Assembly: GCA_965198945.1 (NCBI GenBank)
Contig: CBDAQI010000001.1
Span: 256,001 to 320,000 of the forward strand
Length of the DNA: 64,000 nt
Direction of reading: 5' to 3'
Origin: Thermodesulfobacteriota bacterium
GTDB lineage: Bacteria > Desulfobacterota_D > UBA1144 > Nemesobacterales > Mycalebacteriaceae
A program made the translations under genes and the position numbers. A model generated the notes under the pieces. That model made no database searches. It was not told where the DNA came from and worked only from the letters and a program-made list of their open reading frames with translations. The first letter of the stretch is position 1; every line of letters starts with the position of its first letter. Positions 2,772 through 26,503 of the stretch are shown piece after piece.

Positions 2772-2975
2772 CGGCGGAGACTCACAGGCGATTAGGCCGT
2801 TTTAAGGGAATAGAATAATATGCCATTTACTATGGATGGTAATTTGTATTCTGCGGAATGTATGATCTGGTGGAAAAGATATTCGGTGCGCGGGAGAACC
2901 TGTATGAGTAGGGAGCGGGTTGGTGAGACGCACTCTGGCCGCCGGTATGAGAATTAAGGTCAGCTTTCAGTTTTT

Positions 2976-3005
2976 TTGACAACCCGACCTCTTTTTCTGT
3001 AAATT
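2976..3005 (+). promoter_or_regulatory. Possible sigma70 promoter of the bio genes
   Basis: TTGACA (2976-2981), 18-nt spacer, TAAATT (3000-3005). Confidence 0.4.
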
Positions 3006-14787: not shown

Positions 14788-15093
14788 TGAAAAAGCCTTC
14801 TCGCCCAATCGGCTGTCTTATCATAATACAGGGAATAAGGAGTCAAAGTAATAAGCAGAGTTTCAACATCAACCGCCATGCCGTTTTCTTGTTTGCCTCA
14901 TATAAACAGCTGTTTTCATTACATTTTTTGGCAATCAATCAAATAAGAATAATTCATTGTGCTTATTGGATAACGCACTATTTGCACATTATAAGATACT
15001 GCTATCATTGTATAAACTTACTTAAAGTCAAATAAGAACAATCAATTGTCCTTATTTGACTTTTTGAGTTTTTCCACTAATGTAAAAGCAGCC

Positions 15094-16566
15094 ATGTTGG
15101 GAATTTCAACTGAAGAAAGAAATCAGCGTCTTAAAACGGACAATCCCTGGTGGGATGATCCGAGCGATGTGAGATGGAAAGACGCCCCTGAAAGAGTTTA
15201 CTTTGCACCATTCTATGAATTGGCAACGAAAACGGAAGTCAACCGCGCGGTTGTTCTGATGGGGCCCCGGAGAGTTGGCAAGACGGTCATGGTTCATCAG
15301 GCAGTCGCCGGACTTATAAAAGAAAGCGTCAATCCGAAAAAAATTCTTTACATACCCCTGGACAACCCGCTGTATGCCGGACTGTCTCTTGAAAAAATTC
15401 TTCTTGCTTTTCTTGAGCTCAATAAAAATCCGAAAAGCGAAATCGCCTATCTTTTCTTTGATGAGATTCAATACTTAAAAGACTGGGAACTTCATCTGAA
15501 GTCCCTTGTTGATTCCTATCCGCAACACCGCTTTATCGCCACCGGCTCGGCCGCGGCGGCATTAAAACTTAAAAGCAACGAGTCCGGTGCAGGAAGGTTT
15601 ACCGATTTTATTCTGCCTCCCATGACATTTCATGAATACATAAAATTTATAGACGTGGAAGAAGAACTTTTTGATAAAAATGCCGGGTTTTTGTTTGGTA
15701 TGGGAAAAGCAATAAACAACATTAAAGATATCAATACGCATTTCATAAAATACCTCAACTTTGGCGGCTACCCTGAAGCAGTGTTTTCAGAAGAAATCAA
15801 AAAAGACCCGGGCCGTTTTATAAAAAACGATATCATAGACAAGGTTCTTCTAAGAGACTTACCCAGCCTTTACGGGATAAGCGACATTCCCGAACTCAAC
15901 CGCCTGTTTACAGCTCTCGCTCACAGCACGGGGCGGGAAGTCAATTTGTCTGCTCTTTCACAAGGTTCCAATGTGGCAAAAGGCACAATATCAAGATATT
16001 TGGAATATCTTGAAGCGGCTTTTCTTATAAAACGTGTCCGCAGGGTGGATAAAAACATTAAAAGGTTCAAAAGAGACCACACTTTCAAAGTTTATCTCAC
16101 AAACCCCTCAATGTATGCGGCGCTTTTCGGCACTGTAAGCGAAGACAATAGTGAAGTGATTGGAATGTTGGTGGAAACGGCGGTTTTCAGCCACTTTTTT
16201 CACTTGATGGGAAAATCCGAACCCCTTTATTATGCTCGCTGGAACAATGGAGAGGTGGACTTGGTAGCAATGGATGAAACCGGAATAAAAGCAGCGTTTG
16301 CAATTGAAATCAAATGGTCTGACAAGCCATATCAAAATCTTTCAGAAATTAGTGGGCTGCTTGATTTCACAAAAAAACACGGAATCGGAGGAGATGCGGG
16401 CACGGCTATATGTCTCAGTAAAAGCAAATACGCCCCTAAGCCATATGAAAGCGGAACTGTCATTTTCATTCCCGTAAGTTTTGTCTGCCTTGAACTTGGA
16501 CAAATGCTAAACAGCAAGGAATTCAGGGAAGCTTTTGTAAGTGAGGAAAAAAAACTTCCGGATTAG
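15094..16566 (+). CDS. AAA_14 ATPase with DUF4143 and C-terminal PD-(D/E)xK-like motif
   Basis: GPRRVGKT Walker A, FFDEIQ Walker B, ATGS, GGYPE, YLEYLEAAFL, EVDLV...AIEIKW. Confidence 0.88.
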   Translation: MLGISTEERNQRLKTDNPWWDDPSDVRWKDAPERVYFAPFYELATKTEVNRAVVLMGPRRVGKTVMVHQAVAGLIKESVNPKKILYIPLDNPLYAGLSLEKILLAFLELNKNPKSEIAYLFFDEIQYLKDWELHLKSLVDSYPQHRFIATGSAAAALKLKSNESGAGRFTDFILPPMTFHEYIKFIDVEEELFDKNAGFLFGMGKAINNIKDINTHFIKYLNFGGYPEAVFSEEIKKDPGRFIKNDIIDKVLLRDLPSLYGISDIPELNRLFTALAHSTGREVNLSALSQGSNVAKGTISRYLEYLEAAFLIKRVRRVDKNIKRFKRDHTFKVYLTNPSMYAALFGTVSEDNSEVIGMLVETAVFSHFFHLMGKSEPLYYARWNNGEVDLVAMDETGIKAAFAIEIKWSDKPYQNLSEISGLLDFTKKHGIGGDAGTAICLSKSKYAPKPYESGTVIFIPVSFVCLELGQMLNSKEFREAFVSEEKKLPD

Positions 16567-16592
16567 ATTTTACAACCTCCATGAATGCAATA

Positions 16593-16606
16593 TATGCTAT
16601 AGCATA
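16593..16606. promoter_or_regulatory. Perfect 14-bp palindrome, candidate operator for the Xre-HsdM fusion
   Basis: TATGCTATAGCATA equals its own reverse complement; overlaps a -10-like CATAAT and ends 23 nt before the ATG at 16630. Confidence 0.55.
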
Positions 16607-16629
16607 ATAGAACTTCAGAGTTTTTTATA

Positions 16630-18463
16630 ATGACCGAAAAAGAAGACCTGTCAGAAATTATCAAAAGCGTCAGAAACACTCTGAACCTTTCCCAAGAAAA
16701 ACTCGCCTCAAAACTCGGGGTTTCATTCTCAACACTGAACGGATGGGAAAACGGCCGCCGTGTTCCCCGGAAAAAACATCTGGACAAAATTATGGAGATG
16801 GCGGAAAAAGCCGCAAATTCCGAGCCCGCAGCGCCCCGGCGCAGACTCAACACCAAACAGGATGTTTTAAGCATAAAAATGATGGAGCAGATGCTATGGG
16901 ATGCCGCCTGTTCCATAAGGGGCGAGAAAGACGCTCCGAAATTCAAGGACTACCTGCTTCCCCTAATCTTTTTGAAACGTCTTTCAGATGTTTTTGACGA
17001 TGAAATGGAGAGACTCGCAGATGAACACGGAAGTATGGAAAGGGCTCAAGACATAGTTGGCAGGGACAAAGAAATCATTCGTTTCTATCTGCCGCCGGAG
17101 ACCAGATGGGATGTTTTGAGCGGAAGAACAAGTTTCAAGTGGGCAAAAGGCGCCGAACCTAAAACACTTAGAGAGCAAATAACCTCAACTATGCGAACAG
17201 TCGCCGAGGCCAATCCTTCTCTCAAGGGAGTTATAGACCTTGTTGACTATGGAAAAACAAGCGGGGGAGAACGCGAGATAAGCGACGCGGCTCTAAAGGA
17301 AGTAATAGAGAAATTTTCAAAACCTCAGTATCGGCTTGGAATCCATGATGTGGAGCCGGATTTTCTCGGCCGCTGCTACGAATATCTTTTGAGAAAATTA
17401 GCGGAAAATTCGGGACAGAGCGCCGGAGAGTTTTTCACCCCAACGGAAGTGGGCTGGCTCATGGCGCGGATTATGAAACCGACACAGGGCGAGACGGTTT
17501 ATGAATACGCCTGCGGTTCGGCGGGTCTGCTGATAAAGTGCGAACTCGCGCTTCTTGAACGGTATCCCGATGTCAAAAAGGGGGCTCCCTTGAAACTGTT
17601 CGGACAGGAACTTGGAACTGATAACTATGCGATGGCGCAAATGAACGCAATTATCCACGATATGGAATGCAAAATTGAGCGCGGAAACTCAATGAAAAAC
17701 CCCAAGTTTCTGAACGAAACCGGAGGATTGCAGAATTTTGACATAGTTGTCGCCAACCCGATGTGGAATCAGCCGTTTGATGTTTCCGGATATGTGGAAT
17801 CAGCCGTTTGATGTTTCCGGATATGAGGAAGACAAGTTTGACCGTTTTGAGTCACAGGGAGGCGTAACAACAAGCAAAGCAGACTGGGCATGGCTTCAGC
17901 ACACGGCAAAATCCCTGAACACCAAAGGAAGGGCGGCGGTCGTGATAGACACGGGAGCGGTAACACGCGGAAGCGGAGCATCGGGAGAAGACAAAGAGAA
18001 GAGAATCCGCAAATGGTTTGTTGAAAAAGACTTGATTGAAGGCGTAATTTTTCTTCCCGAAAACCTTTTCTACAACACCACGGCGGCGGGAATAATAATT
18101 CTCCTGAACAAAAATAAAAACTCTGCGAGAAAGGGGAAAGTTGTTTTAATTAACGCAAGCGGGGAATTCAAAAAAGGCAGGCCGAAAAACTATCTGAGCG
18201 ATGAAGGTTCAAGAAGGATTGTTGATTCTTTCTTCAACGGAAAAGATGAGGAGCGTTTCTCAAAAGTCATAACAGTAAAAGAAGCGGCGGAAAATGACTA
18301 CAACCTGTCTCCTTCGCGTTACATTGACATAAGCGAGAAAGAAATTCTCCGCCCGATACCGGAAATATGGGCGGAGCTGAAAGCGCTTGAGAAAGAGGCG
18401 AAAAAGACGGACAGAGAGGTTGAAAAGATTTTCAGGGATATGGCAGCGGAGTATGAAACTTGA
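16630..18463 (+). pseudogene. hsdM: Type I R-M methyltransferase with N-terminal Xre HTH, frameshifted by a 31-bp tandem duplication
   Basis: HTH LNLSQEKLASKLGVSFSTLNGWENG; LWDAACSIRG, GEFFTP, YACGSAGLL, GQEL, VVANPMWN; the C-terminal half (ADWAWLQH, LPENLFYNT, NDYNLSPSRYI) is in another frame. Confidence 0.9.
17761..17822 (+). repeat. Perfect 31-bp tandem duplication
   Basis: ATGTGGAATCAGCCGTTTGATGTTTCCGGAT at 17761-17791 and 17792-17822. Confidence 0.97.
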
Positions 18464-18488
18464 CATTTTCAGTTGACAAGCCTAAAAT
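18460..18488 (+). promoter_or_regulatory. Near-consensus sigma70 promoter for the hairpin-NYN unit
   Basis: TTGACA (18460-18465), 17 nt, TAAAAT (18483-18488); a second TTGACA at 18473. Confidence 0.65.
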
Positions 18489-18494
18489 TCTTTC

Positions 18495-18570
18495 ATTATT
18501 TGCCCCCCCCTCGGAGCAGCCCGGGAACAACCTTTTGGGATTCTTGGGACTCTGAGTGGGGTTATTTTTT
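18495..18570 (+). ncRNA. Putative ~75-nt structured leader or small RNA ending in a U-tract
   Basis: Outer stem 18505-18516 with 18550-18561 (11/12 pairs), inner stem 18520-18527 with 18541-18548 (8/8 including G-U), CC-UUUU-GG cap, then UUAUUUUUU. Confidence 0.5.
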
Positions 18571-18591
18571 GTCCTCTTTGGAGATTCTCGG

Positions 18592-19212
18592 ATGATTGAG
18601 CCTTCAATCAAAAGAGCGTCTTTCTTTATTGACGGACAGAACCTTTTTCCCGGCGTAAAAGAAGCGTTCGGCTACCCATACCCAAACTACAACATCAAAA
18701 AACTGTCGGAGAAAATCTGTGAGATTCACAAATGGGAAATAAAGGACATATCTTTTTACACCGGAATTCCGGATGAAAAAATCAGCCCGGACTGGCATTA
18801 TTTTTGGACCACAAAAATGTCAGTAATGGGCAACATGGGAATCAAAACCTTCTCCAGAAAACTACAATACTCCAATGTAAGCAATGACCGTTCAGATCCG
18901 ATTCTGGCGGGAAGGGAAAAAGGAATTGACATACGAATTGCTCTTGACGTTACCCGGACGGTTTTTGAAGATGGTTGCGATGTTGCAATTATCTTCAGTC
19001 AGGACCAGGATTTATCCGAAGTTGCAAAAGAAGTAAGACACATTTCAAAACGCGAAAAACGCTGGATTAAAATTGCAAGCGCATTCCCGGTGAGTCCGAC
19101 AAGTAAAAACAATCGTGGAATCAACAACACGGATTGGATAAAAATTGAAAGAAAAATTTATGATGACTGTATTGACACAAGAGACTACAGACCAAAAAAA
19201 GGAACAAAATAA
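18592..19212 (+). CDS. NYN (LabA/DUF88, PIN-fold) putative RNase
   Basis: FFIDGQN, EKGIDIRIALD and IFSQDQDL catalytic aspartate motifs; GGAG RBS at 18580. Confidence 0.88.
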   Translation: MIEPSIKRASFFIDGQNLFPGVKEAFGYPYPNYNIKKLSEKICEIHKWEIKDISFYTGIPDEKISPDWHYFWTTKMSVMGNMGIKTFSRKLQYSNVSNDRSDPILAGREKGIDIRIALDVTRTVFEDGCDVAIIFSQDQDLSEVAKEVRHISKREKRWIKIASAFPVSPTSKNNRGINNTDWIKIERKIYDDCIDTRDYRPKKGTK

Positions 19213-20783
19213 TGTCTTTACAGGAAATAAACAAAAGCATTGGAGGATTTTTTGAAGAATGGAAATCCTTACAGCCTCTCAAGCCGGAGTATAAGGAGCG
19301 GCTTAACAAAAAAATCCGGCTGGAGTGGAACTACAACTCAAATCATATTGAAGGTAACACGCTGACTTACGGAGAGACCGCCGCTTTAATACTTGAGGGA
19401 AAAGAGGAGGGAATTCATCCAAAACGCGATTATATGGAAATGAAAGCGCACGATTTGGCTATAGAAAAAGTCAGGGAATTTGCGGCGGACAAAGACAGAA
19501 AACTTACGGAATCCGACATTCGGGGTTTGAACAAACTTATTCTCAAAGAGCCGTTTTGGGCGGAAGCCATAACCGCTGAAGGACAGAAGACCCAGAAAGA
19601 GATTATTCCCGGAATATACAAAACACAGCCAAATCATGTGAGGATGGAAACGGGGAAAATTTTCAAATTTGCCGAACCGCATGATGTTCCCGCAAAAATG
19701 AAAGAACTGGTGGAATGGTTTGATAGGGAAATGCAAGATCCGCCCCTTGCGGTTTCCTCTTTTCTTACGGAGCTACACCACCGTTTCATTCTCATTCATC
19801 CGTTTGATGACGGGAACGGACGCATAGTCCGTTTGTGGATGAACTATGTTTTATTGAGACTCGGCTACCCGCCCCTGGTGATAAAAAGCGAGGATAAAAA
19901 AAATTACTTTGCAGCTTTACAAAAAGCGGATGGCGGAGATATGGATATCCTTGCCGTTTATCTTGGAAATGTTTTGATTGATTGGCTGGATATTGGGATT
20001 AAAGCGGCGAAGGGAGAAAATATAAAGGATGTCACAGACGTCGACAAAGAATGGTCTATTTTTGTTGCCAGTGAAAAAAATAAAGGATTGAAAAATACAG
20101 GTGATTTCATATCTTCATCAAACGTGGAACAAATATGCGAAGAATATCTGACACCGTTTCTTAAAAATTTCGAGAAAGAATTTAGGCAGTTCTATGAAGT
20201 TTTTGCGGAAAGAAAGATTCATGTTCTGTCAAGCCCTTGTTATGAAGAAGAAAAAGAGCAAATCAACCCTCAATCATTTCGAAAAATTCATAACAATATG
20301 TTTTTCCCTTCCATATCAAACTCATTACTGAATTCTTTGTTTAATGCACCTCTTGATACTTTTATAATTGTTTCGGAAGACAGGAAAGAGACAGGTTGGG
20401 AAAAAACATTTAAAAATTTCATGGTTGGGACAAATTGGAGCAGAAAAAAAGAAAGGATTATTAGATTGAAATTACTTTGCAATGGATACATGGGAGAATG
20501 TCATAAGGTTTTTGATATCGATTCTGCTTTATTCATAGAAACCAGCGATTTTGAATATAGAACATGGATAGAAATATGCAACAAAAGAGCAATCAAAACC
20601 ATAAAAAAACAACAGATAAAAAGACAAAGATATATTCTCATTCATGGTCAAAAGAAGAAATGGACAAATTTATATTCAAAGCAAAAGAAAATCTTAATGA
20701 AATTATTAAGGAATCTATTAAGAACAAAGGGGAAAAATAAGAAAGGCAAAAATGAAACTGCAAACTTACAAATTATCCGATGA
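19212..20783 (+). CDS. Fic (Fido) family protein with long unknown C-terminal region; probable frameshift near 20603-20609
   Basis: Canonical HPFDDGNGRIVR motif and N-terminal inhibitory-type SNHIEGN motif. Confidence 0.88.
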   Translation: MSLQEINKSIGGFFEEWKSLQPLKPEYKERLNKKIRLEWNYNSNHIEGNTLTYGETAALILEGKEEGIHPKRDYMEMKAHDLAIEKVREFAADKDRKLTESDIRGLNKLILKEPFWAEAITAEGQKTQKEIIPGIYKTQPNHVRMETGKIFKFAEPHDVPAKMKELVEWFDREMQDPPLAVSSFLTELHHRFILIHPFDDGNGRIVRLWMNYVLLRLGYPPLVIKSEDKKNYFAALQKADGGDMDILAVYLGNVLIDWLDIGIKAAKGENIKDVTDVDKEWSIFVASEKNKGLKNTGDFISSSNVEQICEEYLTPFLKNFEKEFRQFYEVFAERKIHVLSSPCYEEEKEQINPQSFRKIHNNMFFPSISNSLLNSLFNAPLDTFIIVSEDRKETGWEKTFKNFMVGTNWSRKKERIIRLKLLCNGYMGECHKVFDIDSALFIETSDFEYRTWIEICNKRAIKTIKKQQIKRQRYILIHGQKKKWTNLYSKQKKILMKLLRNLLRTKGKNKKGKNETANLQIIR

Positions 20784-21992
20784 AAAAGTATTTTCTTTTG
20801 CCAATGGTCTTTGGAAGGGGAAAAAGGCGCCTTTTACAAAAGTTTCAGTAATCAGAAACACAAACTTTAGAAACAACGGAAAGATTGACTACTCAAACAT
20901 TGCCAATTTTGATGTTGAAACCAAGCAATATGAGAAAAGAAAACTTGAATACGGAGACATAATAATTGAGCGTTCTGGAGTAGGCCTTCACAACCCGTTG
21001 GTAGAGTTTGTTTCTTCAACAGTGAAGGGAAAGAAGATTTCAGCTTCAGTAATTTTACAACTAGGCTTCGCATTGTTGACTCATGCCTCTTTAATTCTCT
21101 TTTTGTTCATTACTTCCTACTAAACACATACAACAAAGGAGAAACCAATAAACTCCAAAACAAAACAACAGGCATAAGAAATCTGGACTTTAATAGATAC
21201 AAAGAAATAGAAATTCCTTCTCCTCCACTCTCCGAACAAAAAAGAATCGCCAAAACTCTCTCAACAATTCAGAATGTCATTGAAACACAAGACAAAATCA
21301 TCGCCAATGTTCGGGAACTCAAAAAAACCACAATGGAAAAGGTTTTTACAAAAGGATTGAACGGTGGAAAGACAAAGCAAACGGAAATTGGGGAAATGCC
21401 GGATGGGTGGAAACTATACACAATAGACAATCTATTTGAAATGAAACAAGGCAAATCTCTCTCCGCCAAAAAACAAACAGGAAAATATCTGAAACCTTTC
21501 TTGCGAACTTCCAATGTTTTGTGGGGAAAGTTATATCTTTCAAAAGTAGATGAAATGGACATACTTCCCGAAGAAACAAAATTGCTTGAGTTGAAAGAAA
21601 ATGACCTGCTTGTATGCGAAGGTGGAGAAATAGGACGCACAGCAATATGGAAATGTGAAATGGGAGAATGCTATTATCAAAACCATATCCATCGTCTGCG
21701 GTCTAAAAAAGACAGAATTTCCCAAGTTTTCTATATGTTTTGGTTGCAATTCGCCATTCAAATGAATAGCATTTATGGGACTTTTGGAAACCGAACAACT
21801 ATTCCAAATTTATCAGGAAAGACCTTATCAAAGTTTGTTTTGCCGCACCCAATTTTCAACGAACAAGAACGAATCGCCGAAATTTTACAATTCATTGACA
21901 GAAAAGTTGAACAACACCGAGACAAGAAAAACTCATTGCAGGATTTATTCAAAACTATGCTGAATGAATTAATGAAAAAAGGCTTGAAATAA
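20752..21992 (+). pseudogene. hsdS: Type I R-M specificity subunit, one-base deletion near 20985
   Basis: TRD1 ...GDIIIERSG continues in another frame as SQPVGRVCFF...IPSPPLSEQKRIAKTL...ELKKTTMEKVFTKG, open into ORF 21333-21992 (TEIGEMPDGW, EQERIAEIL, LFKTMLNELM). Confidence 0.88.
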
Positions 21993-22354
21993 TGCTGTAT
22001 AAGACTGTTAAAAATGTAGATATGAATTTTTCAGAAGTTACATATATTGGTTTTGACGAACAGAATACTACTTACAGTTTTAAGGTTTTCTGGGAAAGTT
22101 TGCAAAACGCCCGGATACTTCCTAATCCGGTCAGCGCCTATTCGGTTGATGGGCAAGCTAAAGTTAAAGATTTGCCCGATGAGATAAAGGAAAAAATTTA
22201 TTCTGCTGTCAAAGCAAATGTTTTTTCAGAAAAAGATGTTTGGGAGCGCAGATATTTTGCCTTCCACATTATAATAACAATTTGGCAAAAAAAGATTGGT
22301 CTGATAACTCTTTTTGTTGTGGTTTTAAACACCATAATAGGACTCTGCGGATAA
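21992..22354 (+). CDS. Hypothetical protein with hydrophobic C-terminus
   Basis: Start overlaps the hsdS stop (TAATG); ends IGLITLFVVVLNTIIGLCG. Confidence 0.55.
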   Translation: MLYKTVKNVDMNFSEVTYIGFDEQNTTYSFKVFWESLQNARILPNPVSAYSVDGQAKVKDLPDEIKEKIYSAVKANVFSEKDVWERRYFAFHIIITIWQKKIGLITLFVVVLNTIIGLCG

Positions 22355-22392
22355 ATATCTTCAATGAAAACGTAATTCTATAAATGTAACCC

Positions 22393-25320
22393 ATGCCCTC
22401 CCTAACATCCGAAAGAGAAAGCGTTCAGGAACCGCTGATTAAATACGCCTCTGAAATCGGCTGGAAAATCGTCTCCCGCGAGGAAGCCGAGAGTCTTCGC
22501 GGCGGAACTCAAGGACTTCTTTTTTCCTCCGTCTTCAAAGAAAAACTAATTACCCTCAATCCGGGACTCATTGATTCCGAAAACGCGCGGGTAGTCATTC
22601 AGTCAATGGAATCCGTCCGTTATGACATCAGGGGAAATAAAGACGCGCTCAGTTGGATGCGCGGGCAGAAAAGCATTTACAGCGAGAAAGAAAAACGGGA
22701 ACTCACCATCTCCGTCATTGATTATCAAAATCCCGATAACAACACCTTTCAAGTTACCGATGAATGGGAAACCGCCGCGCAAAAACCGCATCGCGCCGAT
22801 GTGATGTTTCTCATTAACGGCATTCCGGTTGCAATCGTGGAAACAAAAAGCGCCAGAAAGAAAGAACCGATTTGGGATGGACTGACTCAAATAAGACAGT
22901 ATCACAAAGACACCCCCGCAATGCTCGCCCTGCCTCAAGTGTTTGATATAACGGATGTGCTCGGATTCCATTACGGGGCCACATGGAATACCGAAGTAAA
23001 ATCAGTTTTCAACTGGAAAGATGAACAGGACGGCAACTTTGAAAAGAAAGTAAAGGCATTTTTTGACAGGGAAAGATTTTTGAAACTGCTTGAGAGATGG
23101 ATTCTGTTTTTTCAAAAAGACGATGAACTCAGAAAGACCGTCCTCAGACAGCACCAGACACGCGCCGTGGAAAAAATAGAAAACAGATGTGCGGACATAA
23201 AGAAAACGCGCGGTCTGATATGGCACACGCAAGGGTCGGGCAAGACCTTTACGATGATAAAAGCCGCCGAACTTGTGTTTAAGAGCAAAACCGCGCTCGG
23301 AGACCCGACCGTTATTTTGATGATAGACAGAAATGAACTTCAGGGGCAGCTGGCGGGCTGGCTTGAGTCTCTTTCTTACGAAGGCGGAATTACCGGAGTA
23401 AATATAAGACCGGCGAAAACAAAAAATGATTTGCGGGAAATCCTGAAATCTGACTTCAGAGGCCTTGCGGTTTCAATGATTCACAAATTTGATGACATGC
23501 CCGCGAACATAAACAAGAGAGAAAACATATTTGTTTTTATTGACGAAGCGCGCCGCAGCGTTGAGGGAGACTTCGGAAACTACCTGACCGGAGCGCTTCC
23601 GAACGCCACTTTTATCGGGTTCACCGGAACACCGGTGGACAAAACCCAGTATGGAAAAGGAACTTTCAAGGTTTTCGGCAAAGACGATGAAAAAGGGTAT
23701 CTGGACAAATACTCCATAATGGAATCCATCAAGGACGGCACAACAGTTGAACTGAAATACAAACTTGCTCCCGTGAAAATGAGGGTTCCCGAAGAAACTC
23801 TGGAAAGAGAGTTTCTGCAAATGGCGGAAACAGAAAGGCTTAACGATATGGAAAAATTGAACAGAGTTCTTGACAGAGCCGTAACTCTGAAAAATTTTCT
23901 GAAATCGGAGGAAAGGATAACTCTTGTGGCAAAGTATGCCGCCGAACACTTCAAGGAAAACGTTCTGCCGCTGGGATACAAAGCGTTTTTTGTGGCTGTT
24001 GACCGCGAGGCGTGCGCCCTTTACAAAAGAGAGTTTGACAGACTTCTTCCGCCCGAATCGGTAAAAGCGGTTTATACACAATCACAGCATGACACGGAAA
24101 CTCTACCGCTTGTGGCGGAATACCAGTTGTCCGGAGACGAGGAAAAATCACTGCGCAAAGAGTTTCAAAAACCCGGCAGAGACCCGAAACTGTTTGTCGT
24201 GACAGACAAACTGCTGACCGGTTTTGACGCCCCGATTCTGTATTGCATGTATCTTGACAAACCCATGCGCGACCATGTTCTGCTTCAGTCAATAGCGCGA
24301 GTTAACAGACCGTATTCATTTGAAGAAAAAGAAAAACCGCACGGTTTGATTGTGGACTTCGTGGGCATTTTGAACAGCATGAAAAAAGCGCTCGCTTTTG
24401 ATTCAAAAGATGTGAGCGGAGTCATAGAAGATATTGATATTTTGTTTGAAAGTTTCGGAGAAAAAATGAAAGAGGCGCGGGGCTGGCTCAAAATCACAGA
24501 TGGGTTGCGGGAAGACAAGGCGATTGAAAAAATCATTGAACACTTCTCGGACAAAGGCAGAAGAGACAAGTTCATTGAGTTTTTCAGGGAGACCCAGTCT
24601 CTCTACGAAATTCTCTCACCCGACGGCAAACTGGCGCAGTTCCTTGAAGGCTATAAAAATCTTTGCGGGGTGTATGAAATAGTGATGAAAGAATTTGAAA
24701 GAAACGAGCTGCCGGTTGAATATAGACAGTTTCAGAAAAAGACCGAAGAACTTATAAGGGACAAGGTCGGCGCTTATACGACTGAAGAAAAAGAGACTGA
24801 AACCGCCGTCAGTGAAAAAACCCTTGAAGAAATTACAAAAAGCGGAAAAAGCGACGAGGTCAAAGTTCACAACCTGCTGAAATTGATTGAAAAACTTAAT
24901 GCCGAACTGGAAAAAATTTTAGGACTGTCACCAATGTCTGAAAAGGCGCGGAAGTTAAGAGAAAAATATGAGAAAAACCTTGCCGGAGCGAGAGAAACGG
25001 CGGAGGAACTAAACCGGCTTTTAAGAGAAGGCCTTGAAACCAAAGCAAGATCTCAAGAAAGCGGCAAATCACCGGTTCAGTTTGTTTTCTGTCTCACACT
25101 TGAACGGGAGGGGGACACAAAAGCCGAAAAAACCGCCGCAGAGGTGGAAAAGCTTTTCAATCAGTTTCCAAACTATATTGATAACGGTCATCAGAAAAGA
25201 TCTCTGAAATCAGCCCTCTACAAAGTAGTCGGCGCCGCCGTCGGAAAAGAAAATGAAAGCGATGTAATATGGGAGATAATGAGCCTTTATGAGCGTGTCA
25301 AAAAAGAAATTCAGGGATGA
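22393..25320 (+). CDS. hsdR: Type I R-M restriction subunit (DEAH box reads DEAR)
   Basis: RADVMFLINGIPVAIVETK nuclease motif, WHTQGSGKT, FTGTP, LLTGFDAP, LLQSIARVNR. Confidence 0.92.
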   Translation: MPSLTSERESVQEPLIKYASEIGWKIVSREEAESLRGGTQGLLFSSVFKEKLITLNPGLIDSENARVVIQSMESVRYDIRGNKDALSWMRGQKSIYSEKEKRELTISVIDYQNPDNNTFQVTDEWETAAQKPHRADVMFLINGIPVAIVETKSARKKEPIWDGLTQIRQYHKDTPAMLALPQVFDITDVLGFHYGATWNTEVKSVFNWKDEQDGNFEKKVKAFFDRERFLKLLERWILFFQKDDELRKTVLRQHQTRAVEKIENRCADIKKTRGLIWHTQGSGKTFTMIKAAELVFKSKTALGDPTVILMIDRNELQGQLAGWLESLSYEGGITGVNIRPAKTKNDLREILKSDFRGLAVSMIHKFDDMPANINKRENIFVFIDEARRSVEGDFGNYLTGALPNATFIGFTGTPVDKTQYGKGTFKVFGKDDEKGYLDKYSIMESIKDGTTVELKYKLAPVKMRVPEETLEREFLQMAETERLNDMEKLNRVLDRAVTLKNFLKSEERITLVAKYAAEHFKENVLPLGYKAFFVAVDREACALYKREFDRLLPPESVKAVYTQSQHDTETLPLVAEYQLSGDEEKSLRKEFQKPGRDPKLFVVTDKLLTGFDAPILYCMYLDKPMRDHVLLQSIARVNRPYSFEEKEKPHGLIVDFVGILNSMKKALAFDSKDVSGVIEDIDILFESFGEKMKEARGWLKITDGLREDKAIEKIIEHFSDKGRRDKFIEFFRETQSLYEILSPDGKLAQFLEGYKNLCGVYEIVMKEFERNELPVEYRQFQKKTEELIRDKVGAYTTEEKETETAVSEKTLEEITKSGKSDEVKVHNLLKLIEKLNAELEKILGLSPMSEKARKLREKYEKNLAGARETAEELNRLLREGLETKARSQESGKSPVQFVFCLTLEREGDTKAEKTAAEVEKLFNQFPNYIDNGHQKRSLKSALYKVVGAAVGKENESDVIWEIMSLYERVKKEIQG

Positions 25321-25600
25321 AGTCGCGTTTTGGAGCGCAAAAATCAACGTTTGTCCGAAACGGATAACCGTGAGAGATATGACGCGCAAATGGGGCTCCT
25401 GCTCAACAGAAGGACGGGTCAGTTTCAACTCGGAACTTCTGAACAAACCTAAATGGTTCAGACATTTCGTCATAGCGCACGAACTTCTGCATCTGAAAAT
25501 CCCCAATCACGGAAAACTGTTCAAACAGATTTTGAGCGCTCATATTCCGCAATGGCGCGAAATAAAGGACTCCCAAACATTGCGCCGCAGGGAGCGGTGA
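25289..25600 (+). CDS. YgjP/DUF45 M48-like metal-dependent hydrolase
   Basis: KWGSCS and VIAHELLHLKIPNHG; usual position downstream of hsdR. Confidence 0.85.
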   Translation: MSVSKKKFRDEVAFWSAKINVCPKRITVRDMTRKWGSCSTEGRVSFNSELLNKPKWFRHFVIAHELLHLKIPNHGKLFKQILSAHIPQWREIKDSQTLRRRER

Positions 25601-25645
25601 TTATACTATCCGGTGTGGTATTGAACCACGGAGGAAAATAAGAAT

Positions 25646-26503
25646 ATGAACACTTTGAAAAGCGTTGTTTTACTCGCCGTTCTGTCGGCAATTCTTGTCT
25701 GGGCGGGCGGAACTTTCGCGGGACAGCAGGGAGCGGTTATCGCGCTTGTTTTCGCGGGGATTATGAACTTCGCAAGTTTCTGGTGGAGCGACAAAATCGT
25801 TCTGAAAATGTATCGCGCTCAGGAAGTTGACGAAAGTTCCGCACCCGAACTCTACGCCGATGTGCGCGAACTCTCTCAGAGCGCGGGTCTTCCGATGCCG
25901 AAGGTTTACATAGTTCCCGAACAGTCGCCAAACGCATTTGCAACCGGAAGAAGCCCCTCTCATTCGGCCGTAGCCGTAACTCAAGGGATAGTAAAACTTC
26001 TCAACAGGTATGAACTCAAAGGCGTTCTCGCACATGAGCTCGCACATATAAAAAACCGTGACATACTTATCGGCTCAGTCGCCGCCACGATAGCCGCCGC
26101 AATAAGCTACATAGCCTGGATGGCTCAGTTTGCGGCAATCTTCGGCGGCGGAGGCGGAAGAGACGGCAGAAACAACGTCTTCGTCCTTCTCGCAATGGCG
26201 ATAGTGGCACCGCTTGCGGCCACCATAGTTCGCCTCGCCATATCACGCACAAGGGAGTTCGGAGCGGACAGAGAGGGAGCGGCAATATGCTCAAACCCGA
26301 TGTATCTTGCGGACGCACTGCGAAAAATGGACAACTTCGCAAAAAGGATTCCACTCAATGTAAGCGAACAGGCGGCGGAAAGCACATCCCATATGATGAT
26401 TGTAAGCCCCATGATAGGCGGCAGTTTCGCAAAACTGTTCAGCACACACCCGCCCACCGAAGAGCGCATAGCCCGCCTTGAAGCGATGACCTCGTTCGGA
26501 TGA
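25646..26503 (+). CDS. htpX: Zinc metalloprotease HtpX
   Basis: PNAFATGR, GVLAHELAHI, SRTREFGAD, FSTHPPTEERI. Confidence 0.95.
   Translation: MNTLKSVVLLAVLSAILVWAGGTFAGQQGAVIALVFAGIMNFASFWWSDKIVLKMYRAQEVDESSAPELYADVRELSQSAGLPMPKVYIVPEQSPNAFATGRSPSHSAVAVTQGIVKLLNRYELKGVLAHELAHIKNRDILIGSVAATIAAAISYIAWMAQFAAIFGGGGGRDGRNNVFVLLAMAIVAPLAATIVRLAISRTREFGADREGAAICSNPMYLADALRKMDNFAKRIPLNVSEQAAESTSHMMIVSPMIGGSFAKLFSTHPPTEERIARLEAMTSFG

Follow-up and report, generated by a model that had tools for sequence, protein, structure and literature searches.

A conserved terminator-like hairpin leader accompanies LabA-like NYN ribonuclease genes in a mobile one-gene cassette

Why should a near-consensus promoter and a terminator-like hairpin lie inside a restriction-modification (R-M) operon, directly ahead of the gene of a small nuclease-like protein? 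The question is raised by a stretch of 64,000 nucleotides (nt) from a Thermodesulfobacteriota bacterium (contig CBDAQI010000001.1, positions 256,001 to 320,000), hereafter the window, in which an NYN gene and its leader stand between the type I R-M genes hsdM and hsdS. A preliminary description of the locus, made from the sequence alone, had correctly placed the NYN gene between these two, leaving unmentioned the Fic gene that follows it (19212-20783), and had suggested a nuclease of PIN fold paired with a dedicated RNA, a combination that it did not recognise as described. This combination is indeed absent from Rfam 15 and from the literature searched, and as far as these sources show, the leader would be an RNA family not described before, joined to a nuclease fold that had not been seen together with a control RNA. 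It is near-obligately linked to one NYN family and thus gives a concrete way to approach what these enzymes recognise and what controls them.

All elements of the leader fit into the 128-nt spacer between hsdM and the NYN gene, which holds a promoter, a hairpin, a U-tract and a ribosome site. The sigma-70-type promoter on the + strand, present as the preliminary description had it, consists of a -35 box TTGACA (18460-18465), a 17-nt spacer and a -10 box TAAAAT (18483-18488), matches the consensus at 11 of 12 positions and ranks best among the 20 promoter-like sites found in a scan of 10 kb (16000-26000). Its -35 box overlaps the hsdM stop codon TGA (18461-18463), and the predicted transcript start lies at about 18495. 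The leader motif follows on the + strand at 18496-18572 as a 5' single-stranded tail, a two-tier hairpin and a U-tract. The 56-nt hairpin (18506-18561), whose two tiers and U-run had also been reported, has a lower stem of 11 pairs (18506-18516 with 18550-18561, one bulged U at 18557) and an upper stem of 8 pairs, 2 of them G-U (18520-18527 with 18541-18548). The GC-rich stem ends in GGGG (18558-18561) and passes at once into the U-tract TTATTTTTT (18562-18570; 8 U in 9 nt), an arrangement that predicts an intrinsic terminator. The Shine-Dalgarno sequence GGAG (18580-18583, + strand) then lies 8 nt ahead of the NYN start codon, an ATG at 18592. Folded alone, the window hairpin is unremarkable, with only a mild excess of stability (z -1.8; 8 of 200 shuffles equally good), and it is absent from the list of a terminator scan, its loop probably being above the size limit of that scan. 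It is therefore the comparison with relatives, and not the fold of the window copy, that places the hairpin beyond chance. A search of Rfam 15 with the + strand of 18464-18600 gave no match at E values up to 10, Tandem Repeats Finder reported no array in 18464-18591, and the motif is single-copy in the window's own 1.39-Mb genome.

Homologous loci were taken from genomes (17), metagenomes (80, the best 80 of 537 confirmed stretches) and viral contigs (13); loci are designated L and genomes G below. A covariance model, R1, built from 16 sequences, finds the leader directly upstream of the NYN gene, on the coding strand, in 95 of the 100 homologue-bearing sources, with 96 upstream matches (a single copy in 94 of the 95 loci and two in L015) and one weak stray match. 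The window copy scores 48.6 bits (E 1e-6) and differs from the family mainly by its unusually long apical stem. The five leader-less sources comprise two contigs with less than 10 nt upstream of the gene (L069, L094), a locus with the 5' arm deleted (L016), a C-terminal gene fragment (L017) and one poly-G artefact (L060). In L060 the long poly-G occupies positions 1-140 upstream of the gene and probably arose in sequencing or assembly; the locus was excluded as untestable.

The family leader opens with a 5' tail A-U-Y-U-R-C, which leads into a 10-pair stem opening with CCCC and closing with GGGG; above it come an asymmetric (3+1) internal loop, a short upper stem and mostly a GNRA cap, and UUAUUUUUU comes right after the stem. 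Aligned by fit to the model, 89 distinct rows have standard pairs in 98.5% of their cells and changes on both sides in 10 of 13 pairs; none of 500 shuffles equalled the alignment on any of five measures, and pairing fell to 32-55% when the partner was shifted by 1-3 columns. An alignment of this kind is biased toward its own structure, so the count was repeated on a plain MAFFT seed alignment that was not fitted to the structure, in which 93.2% of the cells are paired and 9 of 13 pairs are double-changed, again with 0 of 500 shuffles doing as well. G-U pairs are tolerated, UG occurring in 42 of 89 rows at one pair. The presence of a conserved, covarying hairpin upstream of homologues, which the preliminary description had set beforehand as a test of its own proposal, is thus strongly borne out.

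The sequence of the leader is conserved as well as its pairing. Among 88 distinct sequences the unpaired positions A3, U6, C8, C58 and the UUAU after the stem are near-invariant, as are the CCCC/GGGG base and the closing G-C and A-U pairs of the lower stem; in the columns that follow the stem, 62-88 of the 88 have T. Over 85 loci the mean pairwise identity of the leader is 73% (64% in unpaired columns), and the adjoining best-conserved 40 codons of the NYN gene show 68%, 76% and 37% at codon positions 1, 2 and 3, respectively. By this measure the leader sequence is selected about as strongly as the protein. Because codon position 3 is saturated at 37% as against 73% in the leader, the spread is old and the leader is selected for its sequence as such.

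These figures bear on the plainest explanation of the locus, a generic promoter-plus-terminator module with no specific partner, in which an ordinary terminator or mRNA-stabilising stem-loop would owe its conservation to recent spread. Such a module would account for the intrinsic-terminator hallmarks, all of which are present (GC-rich stem, 8 U in 9 nt), and for the upper stem and loop, which vary freely between stable GNRA- and UUCG-type caps. It does not sit well with the contrast between codon position 3 and the leader or with the near-invariant unpaired bases, nor with relatives in which hairpin and terminator come apart. In Methylobacterium bullatum (L190 2400-2437, NZ_LR743510.1), a cultured alphaproteobacterium that could serve for experiments and has a 47% identical NYN gene, hairpin and UUAU are kept with compensatory changes and the U-run is lost; the stretch is unannotated in the record. 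Two NYN genes of viral contigs, at 24-26% identity, are preceded by a promoter, a GNRA-capped hairpin and then a separate GC-rich terminator hairpin (L110 ~2900-2982, L111 ~2920-3000), with compensatory differences between the GNRA-capped hairpins of the two loci; a wider search for this two-hairpin viral variant recovered only L110 and L111. Since the hairpin is kept without a U-tract in one lineage and accompanied by a separate terminator in distant clades, it is more than a terminator, and the generic module is considered unlikely.

The position of the leader within the transcription unit is similarly constrained. Most loci have a promoter with a -35 box close to consensus ahead of the motif; the highest promoter score found there averages 9.9 as compared with 7.9 in shuffles (88 distinct loci), and 47 of the 88 score at least 10. 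Among loci scoring at least 9.5, the -10 box mostly ends 9-10 nt before the conserved A of the motif (23 loci; within 7-11 nt in 31), and the RNA therefore presumably begins at the 5' edge of the motif. With start codons chosen heuristically, the distance from the last stem G to the start codon is 21-24 nt in 38 of 90 loci and most often 22 nt (30 nt in the window). There is no space for a promoter between the U-tract and the ribosome site, and consequently every NYN transcript would have to read through the hairpin. No arrangement of the riboswitch or antiterminator kind was found in these loci: about 7-10 nt of RNA would lie ahead of the stem, and nothing is conserved further upstream.

What kind of protein is encoded behind this leader? 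The 206-amino-acid (aa) product of the window gene (18592-19212, + strand) has a sole Pfam match, to PF01936 (residues 10-153, 36.9 bits as compared with a gathering cut-off of 24.2, E 6.3e-9). The ribosome site and the intact Asp motifs named in the preliminary description are borne out, the Asp-bearing motifs D14-G-Q-N17, D113, D119 and S136-Q-D138-Q being invariant in 18 homologues. An AlphaFold2 model (predicted local distance difference test 89.1, predicted template modelling score 0.86) has as its top matches among solved structures 2qip (E 2.2e-7; VPA0982), a LabA-like protein whose function is unknown, as well as 6fdl and 5yaa, both NYN domains of MARF1. The conserved acidic residues and the modelled PIN-like fold are those expected of a nuclease of this superfamily. 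A sequence search of solved structures gave no significant relative, NCBIfam holds no family for the protein, and PHROGs gave two weak matches of unknown function only. The PADLOC model HEC-09 matches weakly (E 1.2e-10, model positions 2-167 of 203). Relatives are numerous (3,629 of 3,699 candidates at E <= 0.001), and the best 120, at 53-74% identity, carry source labels from many phyla. The protein shares its PF01936 domain, conserved Asp residues and fold with 2qip and with the bacterial LabA-like NYN proteins (cluster NYN.COG1432), which passages of a 2017 survey of the PIN superfamily describe as abundant and unstudied in function (PMC5499597). The passages of that survey on LabA, defense island and restriction-modification mention no leader RNA.

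Known RNA families were searched for the leader itself. Rfam 15 gave no match over the leaders of 6 typical loci at E values up to 1 and none for the two other leader types, that of the viral contigs and the one described below. In the literature within reach, which excluded subscription journals and bioRxiv supplements, among them the candidate-family tables of the preprint by Payne et al., nothing was found that connects NYN genes with either a leader or an antitoxin RNA. These tables may list the present NYN family among genes embedded in type I R-M systems.

Is the association of leader and nuclease peculiar to one NYN family? A second PF01936 clade, whose proteins have 203 aa and a CxxC insertion, has a conserved leader of another type, present in 13 of 22 loci (e.g. 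L170 1028-1088): here a 5' AUCAUCC tail follows a promoter and leads into a hairpin of 10 pairs, which is adjoined by a terminator of 8 pairs with a U-run. In a MAFFT alignment 98.7% of its cells are paired and 11 of 18 pairs are double-changed, which none of 500 shuffles equalled. The model of this second leader has 16 matches in 13 of 151 genomes, 10 of them directly before the clade's gene (one gene being in two frames); the other 6 (4 strong, 2 weak) have no NYN gene in the locus, and the strong orphans stand before unrelated genes (L199, L201, L202, L204). L172 harbours cassettes of the window clade and of the second clade in tandem (439-2015), each with its own leader type: a window-type leader (439-492) precedes one gene (511-1128) and a two-hairpin leader (1328-1388) the other (1416-2015). 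Taken together, these loci suggest that termination before the open reading frame (ORF) is a recurrent design and that the leader type tracks the NYN clade. As a side observation, tRNA genes lie just upstream of second-clade cassettes in L171 (1176-1248) and L185 (2247-2333, 2858-2931); this adjacency may reflect integration hot spots or a functional link.

How the element came to lie in an hsd operon can be read from three genomes of the same genus. G027 is syntenic, with ATPase gene, hsdM, motif, NYN and Fic genes in the same order and 73% nucleotide identity. In G026 the hsdM stop is followed after 4 nt by the Fic ATG, with neither motif nor NYN gene, and in G024 (L133 1795-2122) hsdM is followed by three tandem motif copies with two promoters and then Fic, again without NYN; the last copy there serves as the Fic leader, 29 nt from the ATG. 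By this comparison, the stretch of ~750 bp that begins with the -35 box and ends with the NYN stop was inserted in the window relative to G026, or was precisely lost in G026. Promoter, hairpin and NYN gene accordingly make up a self-contained, horizontally mobile one-gene cassette. The preliminary description had held a terminator-like element inside an hsd operon to be hard to explain except by a defence module; insertion of an autonomous cassette, as the 4-nt hsdM-Fic junction of G026 illustrates, explains it, and the locus shows how such a cassette can land inside a type I R-M operon. Elsewhere the cassette is mostly alone among unrelated genes, and relatives of the hsd, Fic or ATPase genes are nearby in 12 of 110 loci (tblastn). 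A Pfam survey of 67 neighbours in the 17 genome loci found hsdM/hsdS in four, and otherwise Fic, HipA, PIN, patatin with CD-NTase (CBASS-type) and AbiEii-type ATPases, as well as plain housekeeping genes.

With a cassette so mobile, the hairpin could act at the DNA level, as an end used in recombination or transposition like those of IS200/IS605, REP or attC elements, and be no RNA signal at all. The insertion to the nucleotide between hsdM and Fic and the tandem leader copies in G024 and L015 would suit such an element. Its distribution would not: the motif is not dispersed, being single-copy in the window genome and in three other genomes searched whole, and it always lies on the coding strand between a conserved promoter and a ribosome site. 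No matching element was found at the 3' end of the window cassette (NYN stop), other loci having had no systematic downstream search. The tolerated G-U pairs also form in RNA and become A-C mismatches on the complementary DNA strand. The DNA-level element is very improbable, and the attC-like or IS-end reading was rejected on account of the single copy, the fixed position between promoter and ribosome site and the tolerated G-U pairs.

Leader and gene do not always travel together. RNA-first whole-genome searches with the motif covered the window's phylum (120 genomes) and another class (151 genomes) and revealed a patchy distribution, with the motif in 10 and 4 genomes, respectively. In the phylum, 7 of 13 motif matches precede six intact NYN genes and 3 precede NYN stubs of 20-25 codons or otherwise degenerate (L116, L117, L124); one is the G024 array before Fic, and two lie before other genes, which we take by eye to be a permease and a TcmP-like gene. 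The 5 matches in the other class comprise 2 before intact genes, 1 before an NYN pseudogene, 1 orphan and 1 before an NYN gene of a different clade (L141). In L141 a window-type leader (1501-1560) is located ahead of an NYN-B gene (1574-2092; BLASTP E 0.22 against the window's protein), the sole exception in a clade in which 15 of 16 homologues have no such leader. The same genome has a paralogous leader before an NYN pseudogene (L139), and L141 looks like a transplanted promoter-leader module. The NYN gene is split in L018, and orphan leaders, some with their promoters kept, include strong copies of both leader types. The preliminary description had taken an intact NYN gene amid hsd decay as a sign of addiction; the sign is weak, as NYN genes are truncated or frameshifted behind a kept leader in several genomes. 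A further argument, that leaders outlive their genes, was set aside, since the gene offers mutation a target 11 times as large and the L016 and L017 fragments lack a whole leader.

Orphan leader genes with promoters would also be compatible with a leader that is neither inhibitor nor feedback site, and instead the physiological substrate or cofactor of NYN (a matured small RNA, guide or sensor). The same linkage, conservation and clade-specific leaders would then be expected. A 13-pair hairpin with a variable loop, on the other hand, gives little single-stranded guide sequence, and no complementarity to a target was noticed, though no search aimed at it was made; a substrate or cofactor role is improbable.

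Several known systems invite comparison. In toxin-antitoxin (TA) systems of type III, the excess of the RNA is set by a terminator. Like the NYN cassette, these systems (ToxIN, CptIN, TenpIN) have a promoter, a non-coding RNA, a Rho-independent terminator and an endoribonuclease gene (in outline, from parts of PMC5086642, PMC3401426 and PMC8860590, the details being general background). Both occur in accessory, defence-linked contexts, and in the window, by sequence prediction, one promoter precedes the RNA and a terminator lies between RNA and nuclease gene. The NYN cassette differs in that its one hairpin is the terminator itself, whereas type III loci have arrays of 34-45-nt repeats that are cut by the toxin. 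No tandem direct repeats were found in the leader region of the window (18464-18591), and copy numbers across the family are one in nearly all leader-bearing loci, two in L015 and three in G024. Nor was a ToxN/AbiQ-type toxin found, the sole Pfam match and the structural neighbours of the protein being NYN domains. The analogy drawn in the preliminary description therefore stands for the ToxIN/AbiF-like architecture and the conserved hairpin, and not for the type III repeats or a ToxN-type toxin. The layout, as predicted, is like that of a type III or AbiF-type module, yet it is a member of neither family.

The closest functional model, by analogy, is RCd22/AbiF (Abi_2) of Clostridioides difficile, for which PMC12373285 reports that an upstream structured RNA lowers the expression of a nuclease-like gene and neutralises AbiF by direct binding, in cis and in trans. 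AbiF differs in being an unrelated, HEPN-like Abi_2 protein, and RCd22 carries two motifs; the abiF RNA motif is unrelated to the present leaders and gave no match to them in the Rfam 15 scans. A third comparison is with HEC-09, an NYN candidate embedded in Hma systems and proposed through 'guilt by embedding' (Payne et al., 10.1101/2024.01.29.577857). Like the window protein, it is an NYN-domain protein inside a multi-gene defence system, and it is described as having an N-terminal helix-turn-helix (HTH)-like domain (10.1101/2024.01.29.577857). In the parts of that preprint covered, 'non-coding' and 'ncRNA' do not occur.

The reading that we favour, though only tentatively and at less than even confidence, is that expression is gated by termination and that the leader RNA is the cognate ligand of the nuclease, as in ToxIN or AbiF/RCd22. 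The strong sigma-70 promoter would start an RNA whose first ~75 nt form the hairpin ending GGGG-UUAUUUUUU, about 20 nt before the NYN start. Most transcription would stop at the hairpin, giving a short leader RNA in excess over the full-length mRNA, and NYN would be made by read-through only. The NYN protein may specifically recognise its own leader RNA, as is suggested by a leader conserved like codon positions 1 and 2 and by each clade having its own leader type. Bound in this way, the leader RNA would throttle synthesis in cis and restrain the nuclease, as ToxI does ToxN or RCd22 does AbiF, and the nuclease would be freed when the leader supply fails, for example on transcription shut-off in phage infection. 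The comparisons establish the cassette, its RNA-type hairpin with covariation and sequence-level selection, the near-obligate linkage to the gene, the mobility and the clade-specific leaders. From these we infer that the hairpin terminates in vivo, that the protein recognises the RNA and is neutralised by it, and that the module serves in defence, and the support decreases from termination with short-RNA build-up through specific leader recognition to restraint of the nuclease itself.

Nearly as likely as this ligand reading is a leader that acts in cis only, as an autoregulatory or expression-setting element: it would keep NYN synthesis low, or allow feedback through NYN binding or cleaving its own 5' untranslated region (UTR), with no role in trans and no toxin. 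Precedent is given by the Escherichia coli rnc and rne leaders, in which a stem-loop in the 5' UTR of an RNase's own mRNA is the feedback recognition site, and the NYN leader is likewise a stem-loop in the 5' UTR of an RNase-like gene. The rnc and rne leaders, by contrast, do not act as terminators; no consensus promoter supplies them in excess, and the genes that they precede are non-mobile housekeeping genes. A purely cis-acting leader would agree with a hairpin that belongs to the 5' UTR of the gene itself, keeps a fixed spacing to the ribosome site and is single-copy in all but one of the leader-bearing loci, and sequence conservation and clade-specific leaders suit feedback recognition as well as neutralisation. 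A near-consensus promoter followed by a strong terminator would nevertheless be a wasteful route to low expression unless the short RNA matters. Promoter-keeping orphan leaders and the three-copy array of G024 would be unexpected, and an accessory distribution in defence islands is more in keeping with a conflict gene than with a housekeeping RNase.

A number of observations weigh against a neutralising ligand. The single small hairpin is unlike the processed tandem repeats of type III antitoxins, and its tight spacing to the ribosome site fits a pure cis role equally well. Wrecks of leader-less genes (L016, L017) exist beside gene-less leaders, with no clear asymmetry of an antitoxin outliving its toxin. 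The family is scarce on sequenced plasmids, with 3 weak or partial records among 72,556 (two being weak matches), and without a match in the GenBank phage set, a scarcity unlike that of a classic addiction module. HEC-09, the one NYN candidate found to have been tested, is only distantly related and of another architecture, and it did not protect against the phages tried (10.1101/2024.01.29.577857).

More broadly, small LabA-like NYN ribonucleases might constitute a large overlooked class of RNA-controlled nuclease modules, with cognate leaders in at least three clades, each with a terminator at its end or behind it, acting as antitoxin or sensor, in a type III-like TA or abortive-infection scheme on a PIN-like fold that would extend over thousands of genes in many, mostly uncultured, phyla. 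So wide a generalisation is doubtful at present. If the RNA does neutralise the nuclease, the logic of RNA antitoxins would reach into the PIN-like superfamily, and a very widespread accessory module would join the candidate phage-defence systems. If it acts in cis only, the RNA family would still be one not described before, and the cassette a compact case of a nuclease controlled through termination.

Finally, the surroundings of the cassette in the window deserve a description. An AAA_14/DUF4143 ATPase gene (15046-16566; PADLOC PDC-S01 match) precedes the upstream flank of the cassette, an HTH-fused hsdM (16630-18463, + strand) that is in two ORFs owing to a 31-bp tandem duplication. This duplication (2.3 copies, 17761-17830) shifts the frame in the region of the NPPW-type N6-methylase catalytic motif. 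In public contigs of one sample, probably the source, the duplication junction is found at flank depth and the repeated word at about twice that; these contigs, which stem from two runs of the one sample, confirm the assembly and the duplication. The duplication may be a mutation that inactivates the R-M system or a switch that turns it on and off reversibly. Behind the cassette, the Fic/DOC gene (19212-20783, + strand; PADLOC PDC-S04 / SoFic models) overlaps the NYN stop with its ATG by 1 nt (TAATG), and the two genes are probably co-transcribed. Judged by G026, where Fic begins 4 nt past the hsdM stop, Fic is the older occupant of the gap between hsdM and hsdS. Downstream of Fic lie hsdS remnants (20752-22354), of which the C-terminal half alone aligns in one frame; the intact ORF is the target-recognition half (21333-21992), and S-like similarity also occurs upstream of its start and in a 123-aa ORF of another frame. 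Next comes hsdR (22393-25320), an intact ORF of 975 aa. The decay of the surrounding hsd genes, as stated in the preliminary description, thus applies to the broken hsdM and to hsdS, half of which is in frame, and not to hsdR, which is whole. The locus fits a failing R-M system surrounding a live cassette, and by itself gives no sign of addiction. In the syntenic L015, hsdS is likewise half-size. The R-M operon of the window is also flanked or invaded by two more candidate defence genes, the AAA_14/DUF4143 gene (PDC-S01) and the Fic gene (PDC-S04 / SoFic).

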